Positions 50,541 to 56,598 of a stretch of 64,000 nt of DNA are shown here, piece by piece. The DNA is from Mobula hypostoma (lineage: Eukaryota), in NCBI RefSeq assembly GCF_963921235.1, contig NC_086097.1, positions 36,644,001 through 36,708,000 of the forward strand, in the 5' to 3' direction. The translations under genes and the position numbers were made by a program. The notes under the pieces are model-generated. The model searched no databases, had not been told where the DNA came from, and saw only the letters and a program-made list of their open reading frames with translations. Each line of letters starts with the position of its first letter. Positions within the stretch are counted from its first letter, which is position 1.

Positions 50541-50661
50541 TGTCTTAAAATTGAACTGGAGAAGTCCCATATTTTTAAATAGGCATGAGATTGTCTAAGG
50601 ATAGTGGATCTATGAACCCGCTATGGTGTCATTTCTGGCAATCACTGACATTTTCAAATTA

Positions 50662-51513
50662 CAGTCAGCCCTCCTTATCCGCGAGTTCTGCATGCGCAAA
50701 TTCAACCAACTGTGAATCGAGAAAACCCGGAAGCCCTCTTCCAGCACTTGTTGTTCAAACATGTACAGACTTTTTTTTCTTGTCATTATTCCCTAAACAA
50801 TACAGTATAACAAATATTTTACATAGCATTTACATTGTATTAGGTATTATAAGTAATCTAGAGATGATTTAAAGTATACGGGAGGATGTGCGTAGGTTAT
50901 CGTGGATTGGGATCGGAAAAAAAACGGTTCTCTTACTAAGTAAGTCGGAACAGGTACACCCGGTATTATTTAGCATCAGTTAGTCAAAAGTTTGTCTTAG
51001 TATATAGTATATATTTTACCTTTCTATGCATATAAAACACTTAAGAAACGTATGTTTCAGCGCCGGGCTCGGGAACGGAAATTCCCGAGTTCGATCCAGT
51101 GACAAAACGCTCCCGAGCACGCTCTCCATCCATGCCAGGTTGATGTGAAGGATCAAAAACCCAATAATTAAACCACTGCGTTGCTTAGTAATAATTGTAG
51201 CTTTCATCGGGACAGGGCTTTTCTCACTTTATCCTTTAAAATTGTTCGGATCGTTGACCAACTGTAGCCTAGCGCTTTTCCAATGACCGATGGCGTTTCA
51301 CCTCTTTCCGATCGCTTTATTATTTCCACTTTATTTTCAATCGTGATCGTGATTATTTTCACGAACCGAAACACTGCGGATTCAGAGCTCCACCGCCGGG
51401 TCCTAATGTCCACTGCATTTAGACAGGTTGAATAAGGGACTTAAGCAACCACGTTTTTTGGTATCCGCGAGGGGTCCCAGAACCAGTCCCTCGTGGATAA
51501 GGAGGGCCAACTG
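50662..51513 (-). mobile_element. Tigger/pogo-type non-autonomous DNA transposon
   Basis: TIRs CAGTCAGCCCTCCTTATCCGCGAG and CTCGTGGATAAGGAGGGCCAACTG; TA on both sides; CENP-B-like HTH remnant ITIENKVEIIKRSERGETPSVIGKALGYSWSTIRTILKDK. Confidence 0.9.
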
Positions 51514-51652
51514 TATCAGCTAAAAACATTATCGTTAATTGACAGTAAACTGAACAACTTTGTTGTTGCTGATCAGTAAAATACAACCTCCATGTCAATG
51601 TATGATCTTACCCACATTGCACAATATACCAAAATGGTTTGTTAATTAACAA

Positions 51653-52532
51653 TGTTATGAGAATACACATAAAATTAAGATGTTTGCTGGCCTGGGCTAG
51701 CATCAGTGGCATCAGCAGTTGGTCTGCCACCTGCCCTCAGGGGAAGGAGAGATAAGGAACAATGGAGCAGCGTCTGGAGATGTGTAATGAAGGGATGTGG
51801 GAGGAAGAGCTGTCTGGAGCGGCTCCCCCCTTTGAGCCCTGAACTGTTTGAAGTGATGGACAGGCGATACCCCAGCAGGGGGATAAAAAGGGACAGGTTC
51901 GCTAAGACAGACACACACGCCACCCGAGGTAACGAGACCCTGGAAGCGGTGCGCCTCTCACGAGTGGTGAGAAGAACCGGACAACGCACAGGGTGGAAAG
52001 GTACGATCAGCGGGAACCCGGTGTGTGTCCGCCCTTGCCTGGGTGCCGGGTTCACTGCAGAGGATCGACCGCATCTGGAGGAGGGGTCACAGTCGGTGAC
52101 CTCAGGTGACATCACCAAGGACCCGCCCAAAAAGCTGTTTGTGAGCCATCTCGCTGGTCTGTGAGCCATCCTGCTGGTCTGTGAGTGAAGCCGTTCTGAA
52201 TGATGAGTTGTTCCTATTCTATCTCTCTCTTCCCCCACGTTGTCCACCGCCATGGCAACGATTACTGCGAACTGAACTACTAAACTGGACTGAACTTTGA
52301 GTCATTTTGAAATTGGTCATTTACCCCTAGACAACGATAGAGCTTGATTGATGCTGTTATCTTAATTCTGTGCACATGTGCGTTTATCATCGCTGAACTG
52401 TTGCATTTATTATCCTTTCGATTAATGTGTTGCTTGTTTCTTTAATAAAACTTTCTTAGTTCTAGTACTCCAGACTCCAACTGAGTGATCCATTTCTGCT
52501 GGTTTGGCAACCCAGTTACGGGGTACGTAACA
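51653..52532 (+). repeat. 5' LTR
   Basis: TGTTATG...CGTAACA; TATA-like GATAAAAAG near 51882; AATAAA at 52444; 20-bp tandem duplication at 52141..52185. Confidence 0.95.
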
Positions 52533-52536
52533 TAAG

Positions 52537-52555
52537 TGGGGTTCTCGTCCGCGAT
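52537..52555 (+). promoter_or_regulatory. Primer-binding site, tRNA-Pro-like
   Basis: TGGGGTTCTCGTCCGCGAT, 4 nt after the 5' LTR, versus the tRNA-Pro complement TGGGGGCTCGTCCGGGAT. Confidence 0.75.
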
Positions 52556-52631: not shown

Positions 52632-55478
52632 ATGGAGGTTGAGGAATTTATAAAGGTGCCGACCTTGGAGGCATTAGAGGATGCCAGGAAATCGGAATTG
52701 ATAGCTGTGGCCAAACGGGTGAATCTTGCCAAGGTGAAGTCGACAATGAGGAGAGAGGAGATACACAGAGCTATTGTAGAGCACTATGTATCTAAAGGTG
52801 TGTTTCCCCAAGGTGAGCTGGGGGAGGTGTCTATTGAAAAACCTGCTGGAGATGCGGTACAGGTACAGCTTGAAAAACTGAGACTCGAGCACGAGTTCCG
52901 GGTACGGCAGTTAGAACACGAAGAGAAGCAGTTAGAAAGGCAGGAGAGAGAGTTAGAAAGGCAAGAGAGAGAAAGACAGTTAGAGAGAGAAGAGAGAGAG
53001 AGGGACAGACAGTTGGAGAGAGAGGAGAAACAGAGGGAAAGGGAATTTGAGCTGGAGAAGTTAAAGATAAGGGCCGAGCAGGGGCTCGTGCCGAACCAAG
53101 GTGGAGGGTTCCGGGTGACCCAGGAGGTTAGGCTGGTTCCCCCATTTGACGATACCGATGTGGATCGGTACTTTCTCCACTTCGAAAAAGTAGCTATAAG
53201 TCAGGACTGGCCGAGGGATAAGTGGGTTGTTTTACTTCAGAGTGTACTGAAAGGGAAAGCCCAACAAGCTTACTCAGCTTTATCCGCGGAAGATGCCCAG
53301 AAGTATGAGGTGGTGAAGGAGGCCATCCTCAGGATTTATGAGTTGGTCCCGGAGGCATACCGGCAGAGGTTCCGGAATGCGAGGAAGCGGTGGGACCGCA
53401 CGTATTTGGAGTTTGCTCGCGAGATGCAAACATATTGTGAGCGTTGGTGCGCCTCGAAAGGGGTAGAGGGGGATTATGACAGACTGCTGCAGCTGATTCT
53501 GATTGAGCAGTTTAAAGGTTGTGTCCCTGAGGGTATGAGACCCTACCTCGATGAGAAAGAGGCAGCCACGTTAGCCGCAACTGCTAAGTTAGCGGATGAG
53601 TATGCGTTGACGCATAAAATGAAGGTTGCCCCGAGTAAAGGCTACCAGAAGGGTAGTCAGGACGGCGGGGAGAGTCCACCGGAAAAGTCAGAAAGTAAGC
53701 CGGGGACTAGTGAAAAGGATAAGGTAGACCGGGAGCAGTCTGGTGGGAAGTCTCCTGGGGTCGTCTGTTATAATTGTGGGAAAGTCGGACACTTTGCGTC
53801 CAGGTGCTTTGCCCCAAGGAAGGAGACGGGGAAAGGAAAAGCAGAAATTTTGAATGGCTGTATTGAGCTGTTAAGCGAACCGCTAGGGAAGGACAGGTCT
53901 GAAAAAGTCCAGGAAGGGCGCGAGAGGTTTATCTCGGCCGGACTGGTGTCAGTGAAAAAGAGGTTAAAACCAGTTCCAGTGCGGATCTGGAGAGACACGG
54001 GAGCGTGTCAGTCACTAATACTGAAGAGTGTATTAGAGTTTAGCTCAGAGACCCAGACTGGGGAGGTAGAGGTCAAAGGTGTTGGGGAAGGGACAGAGTC
54101 AGTCCCTTTGCACCAGATACATTTACAGAGCAACCTGGTCTCTGGACTAGTCACGATCGGGGTGAGGTCCGAATTACCGATGAAAGACGTGGAAGTCTTG
54201 CTCGGTAATGACATCGCCGGAGGAATCGTGTTCCCAGTCGTGAGATTGACGGGTCAGCCTGCCAGCATGGAGGCCCCGCCCGCGATGGTGAATTTGGCTG
54301 AAACATTTCTGCCAACCTTGTATGAGACAGGGTGTAGTGAGATAAGAGGTAGTGAGGGAGCTGGGACGGACGTAGCAGTAGCCAGGAAAGAATTTGTGCA
54401 GACGCAGGAGCGAGACGAGGGGCTGATGGTTTTGGCCGAGACAGCTCTCTCTGACACAGCCTTGACAAGGGAACTAGTAGGCTATTGTGCGGATGAGGAA
54501 GTGCTAAGGAAGAAAGGGAAATCAAGTACAGCATCCGCAGATGAGGAGTGGGGGGTGGTGCAAAAGAGTTATGGGGATGAGGTTTTTAACATGGCCCACG
54601 AGGTACCCCCCGGTGGACATTTTGCGGTGCTGGAGGAAACAGTTGGTGGAATCATGAAAGAGAGTTACCGGCTGCCCAGGGGGAAAAATGTTATTGATCA
54701 TGACCGACGCGAACTGAGACGGTCACCGGCTTTTGATATGCGAACAAACCTAGTCGGTGTTAGCGTGGAAATCAATGAAGCTAGGGGCCCCTTGATAAGA
54801 GGAAAAAACCATTTTGAAAAGATTAGGATGGGATCGGTCAGATGGGAGAAGGCTATTGTTTTGGCCAGGTCTACTGATAAGGTCTCTCCCTTAATCCCCG
54901 AAGGAGTAATTAAACGACTCGCACCCATGTGTTTGATTGTCCCGAGGAAATGCAAAGAACTGGGACGTTGGGTTATGTCTGTTACAATAGGGCGGCCCAG
55001 TAAACAACACCCATATTTTTTGAGTAATTCAGTGACTAAAGGGCTGATGAACACAGAGGTGTGTATTGGCAATTTAATACGGCTGCCTGAAGCCAGTCTG
55101 ATAGTGAACCTTGAAAAAAATGAATTCGGCCACACGAGAGTCACCTACCTGGGAATTGTGGTGACACAGGGGCAGCTGGCAGCGATGCAAGCTGCAGTGC
55201 AGGCTATCGCTGACCTCCCCACCCCGACAGACAAGAGGGCCCTCAGAAGGCTTTTGGAGATGGTGGGGTACTGCAGGAAGTTTTGCAATAACTCTGCGGT
55301 CAATACCCGTCCCCCTCCTACTAAGCCCTTGCGAGGGAAAATTGAGTCGGAATGGGACGACCCTTGTTGTTGTGGTCCGGGACAAAACCAAATGAGAGGT
55401 TACATTGGTCGCAATTCATCAGTGTTTTTGGCCACTATGAAGTTTGCTGAGTTGGAGCCTGGTCTAAGGGATTATTAA
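52632..55478 (+). CDS. 948-aa Gag-protease polyprotein with degenerate integrase and RT remnants
   Basis: Coiled coil; capsid with SCAN-like C-terminal part (VPPFDDTDVDRYFLHFEK...YELVPEAYRQRFR...LILIEQF); CCHC knuckle CYNCGKVGHFASRC (53766..53807); protease RDTGA (DTG at 53994) and LLGND; IN zinc-finger remnant AHEVPPGGH (54594..54620); RT pieces KQHPY, CIGN in place of YIDD (55062..55073), VNLEKNEFG..VTYLG, and thumb-like RRLLEMVGYCRKF. Confidence 0.9.
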   Translation: MEVEEFIKVPTLEALEDARKSELIAVAKRVNLAKVKSTMRREEIHRAIVEHYVSKGVFPQGELGEVSIEKPAGDAVQVQLEKLRLEHEFRVRQLEHEEKQLERQERELERQERERQLEREERERDRQLEREEKQREREFELEKLKIRAEQGLVPNQGGGFRVTQEVRLVPPFDDTDVDRYFLHFEKVAISQDWPRDKWVVLLQSVLKGKAQQAYSALSAEDAQKYEVVKEAILRIYELVPEAYRQRFRNARKRWDRTYLEFAREMQTYCERWCASKGVEGDYDRLLQLILIEQFKGCVPEGMRPYLDEKEAATLAATAKLADEYALTHKMKVAPSKGYQKGSQDGGESPPEKSESKPGTSEKDKVDREQSGGKSPGVVCYNCGKVGHFASRCFAPRKETGKGKAEILNGCIELLSEPLGKDRSEKVQEGRERFISAGLVSVKKRLKPVPVRIWRDTGACQSLILKSVLEFSSETQTGEVEVKGVGEGTESVPLHQIHLQSNLVSGLVTIGVRSELPMKDVEVLLGNDIAGGIVFPVVRLTGQPASMEAPPAMVNLAETFLPTLYETGCSEIRGSEGAGTDVAVARKEFVQTQERDEGLMVLAETALSDTALTRELVGYCADEEVLRKKGKSSTASADEEWGVVQKSYGDEVFNMAHEVPPGGHFAVLEETVGGIMKESYRLPRGKNVIDHDRRELRRSPAFDMRTNLVGVSVEINEARGPLIRGKNHFEKIRMGSVRWEKAIVLARSTDKVSPLIPEGVIKRLAPMCLIVPRKCKELGRWVMSVTIGRPSKQHPYFLSNSVTKGLMNTEVCIGNLIRLPEASLIVNLEKNEFGHTRVTYLGIVVTQGQLAAMQAAVQAIADLPTPTDKRALRRLLEMVGYCRKFCNNSAVNTRPPPTKPLRGKIESEWDDPCCCGPGQNQMRGYIGRNSSVFLATMKFAELEPGLRDY

Positions 55479-55638
55479 TAACACGTGTAAAAGGAACAGA
55501 AAATGTGATGACTGTCTGTCAAGGTGTTGACAATTTCAAATTCTCTGTATTAGCTAAATAACTGTTAAAGATGTATATTGTGTATGTATCAGATAATGTA
55601 GTCATGTTTGTAATTTTTACCTCCCGGTAAAAATCCTT

Positions 55639-55650
55639 AAAGGGGGGAAG
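55639..55650 (+). promoter_or_regulatory. Polypurine tract
   Basis: AAAGGGGGGAAG directly abutting the 3' LTR TG. Confidence 0.9.
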
Positions 55651-56530
55651 TGTTACGAGAATACACATAAAATTAAGATGTTTGCTGGCCTGGGCTAGCA
55701 TCAGTGGCATCAGCAGTTGGTCTGCCACCTGCCCTCAGGGGAAGGAGAGATAAGGAACAATGGAGCAGCGTCTGGAGATGTGTAATGAAGGGATGTGGGA
55801 GGAAGAGCTGTCTGGAGCGGCTCCCCCCTTTGAGCCCTGAACTGTTTGAAGTGATGGACAGGCGATACCCCAGCAGGGGGATAAAAAGGGACAGGTTCGC
55901 TAAGACAGACACACACGCCACCCGAGGTAACGAGACCCTGGAAGCGGTGCGCCTCTCACGAGTGGTGAGAAGAACCGGACAACGCACAGGGTGGAAAGGT
56001 ACGATCAGCGGGAACCCGGTGTGTGTCCGCCCTTGCCTGGGTGCCGGGTTCACTGCAGAGGATCGACCGCATCTGGAGGAGGGGTCACAGTCGGTGACCT
56101 CAGGTGACATCACCAAGGACCCGCCCAAAAAGCTGTTTGTGAGCCATCTCGCTGGTCTGTGAGCCATCCTGCTGGTCTGTGAGTGAAGCCGTTCTGAATG
56201 ATGAGTTGTTCCTATTCTATCTCTCTCTTCCCCCACGTTGTCCACCGCCATGGCAACGATTACTGCGAACTGAACTACTAAACTGGACTGAACTTTGAGT
56301 CATTTTGAAATTGGTCATTTACCCCTAGACAACGATAGAGCTTGATTGATGCTGTTATCTTAATTCTGTGCACATGTGCGTTTATCATCGCTGAACTGTT
56401 GCATTTATTATCCTTTCGATTAATGTGTTGCTTGTTTCTTTAATAAAACTTTCTTAGTTCTAGTACTCCAGACTCCAACTGAGTGATCCATTTCTGCTGG
56501 TTTGGCAACCCAGTTACGGGGTACGTAACA
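55651..56530 (+). repeat. 3' LTR
   Basis: TGTTACG...CGTAACA (7-bp terminal inverted repeat). Identical to the 5' LTR in the parts I compared except position 6 (C/T). Confidence 0.95.
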
Positions 56531-56598
56531 ACAAGAAAACAGAAGTAGTGCTGTGTTTCCTCCATGATTGAATGATAGGGAAAGAGACTGGTTCTTAC

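Follow-up and report, generated by a model that had tools for sequence, protein, structure and literature searches.

The 64,000-nt stretch of Mobula hypostoma DNA analysed here, hereafter called the window, carries a complete LTR element with two LTRs, a primer-binding site (PBS), a polypurine tract (PPT) and a target-site duplication. The LTRs, described from the outset as essentially identical, match at 879 of 880 positions, with the one mismatch at 51658, and ACAA flanks the element on both sides as a 4-bp target duplication. The internal part, about 3.1 kb long, contains no ORF beyond a single polyprotein frame of 948 codons without a stop (52632-55478). The features listed below are given in window coordinates, and the copy L201 mentioned there belongs to an intact partner family described further on.

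51649..51652, + strand: target-site duplication ACAA, 5′ copy, matching 56531-56534
51653..52532, + strand: 5′ LTR of 880 bp (TG...CA); identity to the L201 partner LTRs about 94-96%
52537..52555, + strand: primer-binding site, imperfect tRNA-Pro type
52632..55478, + strand: single ORF of 948 aa, Gag - protease - pol remnant
52896..53051, + strand: coiled-coil-like repeat in Gag, varying in length among copies, nearly always by triplets
53349..53618, + strand: SCAN-like capsid domain (PF02023, E 1.5e-12)
53766..53807, + strand: CCHC zinc knuckle
53931..54251, + strand: aspartic protease region, DTG at 53994; a family-specific lineage under purifying selection
54282..54710, + strand: linker and remains of the integrase N-terminus, with both His but no Cys pair
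54711..54740, + strand: junction left by loss of the integrase core (older stage: 867 nt deleted)
54735..55025, + strand: integrase C-terminal/IN-RT linker remnant, up to the RT N-terminal deletion (384 nt)
54993..55022, + strand: hypervariable 30-nt interval with codon 788 (recurrent stop allele)
55026..55079, + strand: RT active-site piece, followed by a 54-nt deletion; CIGN at 55062-55073 replaces YIDD
55080..55367, + strand: RT palm-thumb remnant, up to the connection/RNase H deletion (258 nt, older stage)
55377..55442, + strand: in-frame RNase H piece
55439..55532, + strand: out-of-frame RNase H C-terminal remnant, straddling the present stop
55639..55650, + strand: polypurine tract
55651..56530, + strand: 3′ LTR, with its sole AATAAA at 56442

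Upstream of the element, at 50660-51515, lies a DNA transposon fragment, which we take to be Tigger/pogo-like, bounded by 26-nt inverted repeats (50660-50685 and 51490-51515) and containing a CENP-B_N match on the minus strand at 51207-51440 (E 5e-7).

In the 948-aa ORF, Pfam recognizes only the SCAN domain (aa 240-329, E 1.5e-12) and the zf-CCHC (aa 378-392); together with the DTG at 53994 they bear out the claim that Gag and protease are present. A search against solved structures yielded a weak match of aa 815-892 to the Ty3 RT. The anatomy of the remainder was read by alignment to L201, which reveals some 400 codons of enzyme remnant lying in the open frame, in pieces that are colinear with the domain order of the partner and roughly 55% identical to it in total at the protein level, the RT thumb being the best kept (56 of 77 aa). 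Retention of the integrase His pair (positions 656 and 663) and loss of the Cys pair and of the integrase core, noted at first without a reference sequence, are evident from this comparison, and the two His are nearly invariant in the family (79/80 and 80/80 copies). The reading of CIGN as a former catalytic site is likewise upheld: it aligns exactly to the YIDD of the partner inside shared flanks, and older copies read YIDD, YIGD, YIGN or CIGD at this site. With the integrase core and the RT N-terminus deleted and YIDD replaced, no functional RT or integrase is encoded. RNase H had been described as absent, which is incorrect, since codons 916-937 align in frame with aa 1490-1511 of the partner, and the C-terminal end of the domain is still present out of frame, across and past the ORF stop. 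The remnant is open throughout, as had been stated, but it departs from the ancestral pol frame after codon 937, and the 11 codons that follow, read in a different frame, encode a terminal peptide of non-ancestral origin.

The closest proteins to the ORF are labelled Mobula hypostoma, gag-protease relatives are labelled M. birostris, and the nearest intact proteins are unnamed SCAN-IN-RT polyproteins. By domain architecture, that is, the SCAN-type capsid (PF02023, E 1.5e-12) and the PR-IN-RT-RH order seen by Pfam in the partner, the element would be placed with the Gmr1-like Ty3/Gypsy retrotransposons, as originally proposed. The window copy is a young member of a non-autonomous family of this type. 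Within Gag, the coiled-coil-like repeat grows and shrinks by up to about 240 nt between copies, nearly always in frame.

The family was expected to be present in high copy, and an exact 25-mer covering the dead RT site, which served as a marker, occurs 1,577 times in the genome, while the exact LTR-PBS junction occurs 2,054 times. For detailed study we took the first 80 of the 98 other marker hits listed on one contig, regardless of the state of their ORF, a sample which is nevertheless biased toward younger copies; L108, with an internal replacement, was left out of all variant counts. Among the resulting 79 copies, divergence within LTR pairs ranges from 0 to 4.6% (median 0.46%), 61 copies have an exact 4-bp target duplication, and the deletion junctions are common to family copies, as predicted. 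LTRs, PBS, PPT, target duplications and recent multiplication together identify the family as one of non-autonomous LTR retrotransposons. Contigs from sequencing runs of two further organisms (B and D) also cover the remnant, and some of them span the integrase or RNase H junctions, so that the design is likely to predate the splits of those species, as judged from these junctions.

Several other observations were made on the copies. The PBS is dimorphic, with the imperfect form in 62 of 79 copies and a better match to tRNA-Pro in 15 of 79; both forms are scattered over the tree and occur in the partner as well, which fits repeated copying from a tRNA-Pro primer. Tandem elements with a common LTR are found in the deleted and partner classes (L103, L117, L004/L006, L220/L221), the gag of L115 contains an inserted solo LTR, younger and from this same family, and L089 and L108 contain pieces of one and the same unrelated repeat. 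Family proteins P0001, P0140 and P0145 bear the RefSeq names MACC1, UBE2G2 and PPM1L-like phosphatase, which suggests that copies residing within those genes were merged into gene models. No run recorded as RNA contains the stretch. In three runs guessed to be RNA the element is present and its unique flank almost absent, while one DNA run covers both, a weak hint of expression that is silent on level, strand and ends. In one of the runs guessed to be RNA (X5), the internal region at 55146-55653 is represented by one dominant 508-nt contig with 8 differences, and few copies may be expressed.

An autonomous-type partner that shares the LTRs and PBS forms of the family, the existence of which had been anticipated, was found through a search with the RT core, in which a few hits lay in frames of 1,100-1,560 codons. 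Matches to the integrase core, also considered, belong to older, broken families that are only about 64-69% alike and do not represent the partner. The partner element is about 6.6 kb long, with a single ORF from Gag to RNase H in which Pfam finds SCAN, CCHC, IN, RT and RH. The ORF is unbroken in 4 of the 28 copies examined, and several of the 28 have LTR pairs less than 0.4% apart. The equivalent YIDD 25-mer of the partner has 37 exact occurrences against 1,577 for the deleted marker; the partner is thus outnumbered about 43 to 1.

The two classes are hardly distinguishable in the 5′ part of the element. The Gag of the window copy and that of L201 are 98% identical over aa 115-396 (277/282), and dS between the deleted family and the partner is 0.05 in gag versus 0.54 in the remnant. 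Gag codons 1-396 contain no class-specific site and 21 age-specific changes common to both classes; from codon 401 onward, differing sites are class-specific. In the gag tree (FastTree, no support values shown) partner copies are nested among deleted copies of like age. Gag and LTR thus appear to be continually traded between the two classes, which had not been foreseen, unlike the pol remnant, which is an old separate lineage. Template switching is described as a known behaviour of LTR families (PMC6894440), and co-packaging of the deleted RNA with partner RNA, followed by such switching, would refresh LTR and gag. From the shared LTR, PBS and gag, RT and integrase are likely to be borrowed in trans from the rare intact partner. 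Because of the exchange, part of the constraint seen in gag may belong to the partner.

An older stage of the deleted lineage was sought among LTR-PBS hits without the marker and among hits of a looser pattern. The 14 copies of this stage have the integrase-core and RT N-terminal deletions (modal 867 and 384 nt), 13 of them also have the 258-nt deletion into RNase H, and one still ends at the native pol terminus; the RT site is YIDD, YIGD or YIGN in the 11 copies in which it was read. In the remnant tree, which was rooted on an old partner copy after two distant outgroups had been dropped as unalignable, 13 oldest-stage copies and all 26 included modern copies form one clade with bootstrap 99, within which the modern copies are nested. 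The 54-nt RT deletion, CIGN and smaller deletions were later steps. One copy, L292, which has no RNase H deletion, was considered as an ancestral stage and rejected, since it clusters with old copies of the partner and may have arisen by recombination.

A comparison of dN/dS between gag-pro and the remnant had been suggested, and it shows purifying selection on the former but not on the latter. With CpG changes excluded, gag-pro variants present in at least three copies comprise 49 nonsynonymous and 63 synonymous changes, versus 225 and 101 among private variants (p 3e-6; 79 copies plus the window copy). The corresponding counts in the remnant are 94 and 42 versus 193 and 93, with no difference. 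When changes were polarised with older partner relatives, the remnant on the deleted branch was found to have accumulated 131 nonsynonymous and 39 synonymous changes (omega about 1), and the same region on the partner branch 26 and 43. The family's own protease, with 9 and 11, is constrained (omega 0.37, p 0.02; versus the remnant, p 0.005). No remnant block is significantly constrained, the nearest to it being the RT thumb (omega 0.74, p 0.27), for which weak protein-level constraint is compatible with these values.

As had been surmised, the frame itself is open beyond chance: 5.4 stops would be expected on the deleted branch from the observed mutation spectrum, and none has been fixed (P 0.005); downstream of codon 700 alone, 3.2 would be expected (P 0.04). 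A stop at codon 563 that copies seemed to share was produced by misalignment around an in-frame deletion. In length, the three large deletions (867, 384 and 258 nt) are all multiples of three, and so are nearly all of the smaller shared indels. Shared or fixed indels are in frame in 17 of 18 cases upstream of the last 90 or so codons versus 2 of 6 within them (Fisher p 0.006), in a tally which was made by hand, may count some overlapping linker events twice, and omits frameshifts in one or two copies and in homopolymers; a dozen distinct upstream events would give the same answer. In the 3′ UTR, none of 6 shared or fixed indels is a multiple of three, and among private gag-pro indels the proportion is 9 of 39. 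Upstream, the one exception is a −1/+1 pair (codons 721-724) that is compensated in the modern family; frameshifts that became fixed or were inherited are concentrated in the last ~90 codons. The observation of a dead-pol family with its frame kept open is therefore confirmed, and, on the pattern of substitutions and indels, it is best read as selection on an open frame without selection on protein sequence, which would be stringent at a distance from the 3′ end and relaxed in its vicinity.

Frame-keeping is not without leaks, a feature that had not been foreseen. Single copies decay normally, with an intact ORF in 28 of 49 young, 1 of 15 middle-aged and 2 of 14 old copies, and their breaks are as common in the remnant as in gag-pro; such breaks arise after insertion and are expected with or without selection on the frame. 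Four single-base frameshift events found in two to three copies fall in the remnant. Net shifts of −1 or −2 at codons 721-724 occur in 10 of 30 old copies, several of which have the same lesion, and 6 of the 14 oldest-stage copies share a +4 or +5 shift some 88 codons from the end. Two annotated Mobula proteins terminate, near codon 845, in one and the same frameshifted peptide. Codon 788 is a stop in 83 of 716 copies scored by pattern (12%), a far higher rate than at other CAG codons (1/1,762 in gag-pro). The stop occurs on four different neighbouring-base backgrounds, and the nearest neighbour of a stop copy is an open-frame copy in 18 of 23 cases and another stop copy in 5 of 23, so that the stop copies do not form one clade, although some of the stops may be inherited. 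Early stops are thus tolerated for some rounds, yet have not taken over, and a cost-free stop at codon 788 should by now have been fixed by recurrence, like the neighbouring bases.

The interval around this codon (54993-55022) is the most allele-rich 30-nt stretch outside the Gag repeat, with 32 minor alleles in the 79 copies against a mean of 12.8 (sd 4.1) per 30 nt. In the homologous stretch of the partner, most of the variation falls on third codon positions. Candidate explanations are hypermutation and escape from a host factor; no unusual RNA structure was found at 54960-55080 (z 0.36), and a mutation signature confined to cytosines was not supported, since C, A and T columns vary alike.

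We favour an explanation, to which we assign a probability of roughly 0.6, in which the dead remnant is kept translated nearly to the 3′ LTR because an early stop would trigger RNA decay. The deleted family would make its own Gag and protease, which may confer an advantage in cis, and the partner would supply Pol in trans. As the 3′ LTR has a sole AATAAA, the present 3′ UTR is estimated at about 1.0 kb; termination directly behind the protease would lengthen it to as much as about 2.2 kb, and an early stop would presumably cost RNA through nonsense-mediated decay (NMD). On this view the remnant would act as a translated spacer and could shrink only through in-frame deletions. RNA surveillance is favoured by what is reported for Rous sarcoma virus, in which premature gag stops subject the unspliced RNA to UPF1-dependent decay, and the natural stop is described as being shielded by an RNA stability element (PMC2925335). 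The present family would instead keep its stop near the 3′ end, and the two are compared only in how they may work. This explanation gives no reason why the remnant is not deleted whole.

Of the reasons first suggested for keeping the frame (NMD avoidance, cis packaging or a decoy Pol tail), the data would favour one acting on the RNA over the decoy. A rival explanation is that the translated tail works as a protein, a Gag-protease-pseudo-Pol fusion helping in cis by tethering its own RNA, delaying protease activation or contacting partner Pol via the RT thumb. The GAG-POL fusion of the mouse element IAP 1Δ1 is described as aiding retrotransposition in cis (PMC7411935), and both the thumb, at 56/77 identity to the partner, and the nearly invariant integrase His pair could be taken as signs of such a function. 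We nevertheless regard it as unlikely, given an omega of about 1 over the remnant with no block significantly constrained, a C-terminal peptide that has changed frame, and a frame held to the far end, beyond the need of a generic tail. It is also conceivable, if rather improbable, that the two families form a two-segment mutualism in which the deleted one provides surplus Gag and protease that its single-ORF partner cannot make, and is as much a helper as a parasite. This would accommodate the one partner ORF from Gag to RNase H, the common gag, the constrained protease of the deleted family and a partnership present through every age class sampled. The 43-to-1 excess over the partner is what plain parasitism predicts, and mutualism alone leaves the open frame after the protease unexplained; it is, however, compatible with the RNA-decay explanation.

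That no selection on the frame exists, and that an ordinary deletion derivative had a master lineage which remained open through chance alone and drew attention for this reason, is very improbable. Copies do decay normally, and at two sites stop or frameshift alleles are carried by about 10% of copies or more, as such a derivative would allow; the lack of any fixed stop against 5.4 expected, and the triplet bias of shared indels in the ORF, which is seen neither in the 3′ UTR nor in private gag-pro indels (9/39), have already largely refuted it.

The separate components of the system are already known: non-autonomous LTR elements encoding Gag or Gag-protease, recombination between partners, and fusion frames acting in cis. 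The family resembles the Gmr1-like elements, described as having a SCAN-type capsid followed by PR, IN and RT-RH (bioRxiv 10.1101/2025.03.03.638093), all of which the partner has; unlike elements so described, it has lost the integrase core and the greater part of both RT and RNase H. The closest precedent is mouse IAP 1Δ1, reported as a non-autonomous deletion derivative with a gag-pol fusion frame which is mobilised by rare full-length copies and for which its own translation matters in cis (PMC7411935). IAP 1Δ1 is described with one deletion and as needing GAG and POL in trans (PMC7411935), whereas the present family has undergone many successive deletions, has a complete Gag and a constrained protease, and bears the marks of frame-only selection over a long period (dS about 0.5). 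Its evolutionary signature would fit a need to translate the fused frame in cis, as in an element of the IAP 1Δ1 type; its Gmr1-like Gypsy architecture and single polyprotein ORF place it outside the IAP lineage.

Swapping of LTRs between autonomous and non-autonomous partners in soybean was reportedly described by Du et al. in 2010. There, recombination is reported to keep the LTRs of the partners matched, as it appears to do here; in the present case the exchange spans the LTR and all of gag, stopping at the nucleocapsid-protease boundary. The TR-GAG and GAG/PROT non-autonomous LTR elements of plants are comparable in being short, with one ORF for Gag or Gag-protease, and some beet families are reported to keep decayed pol pieces (PMC4350172, PMC13570524). 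Those pieces are described as fragmented and patchy (PMC4350172, PMC13570524), whereas the remnant studied here forms a continuous frame. TR-GAGs are described as being without pol sequence (PMC4350172), and their definition, a gag ORF with no similarity to protease, IN, RT or RH, does not extend to an ORF that contains a protease and pol remnants. Literature searches, which covered few subscription papers and no repeat databases, brought up neither a description of this family nor one of selection for the frame alone in a pol remnant.

Going further, and with low confidence, one may picture a vertebrate two-segment retrotransposon, with an abundant segment providing Gag, its own protease and a ribosome-crossed spacer that shields the RNA, a rare segment providing Pol, LTR and gag being traded continually between them, and the hypervariable 30-nt interval recording escape from a sequence-specific host repressor.

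An intact ORF of some 950 codons is, in this family, no sign of a working pol, and annotators should be warned that such copies already appear in RefSeq as host proteins. Its natural stop alleles at codon 788 make it directly testable, from existing RNA and DNA data, whether NMD or translation acting in cis determines which RNAs of a retroelement are copied. The family separates selection for an open frame from selection for a protein, and does so with over 1,500 copies that can be dated, a series of fossil stages and a neutral control of its own.
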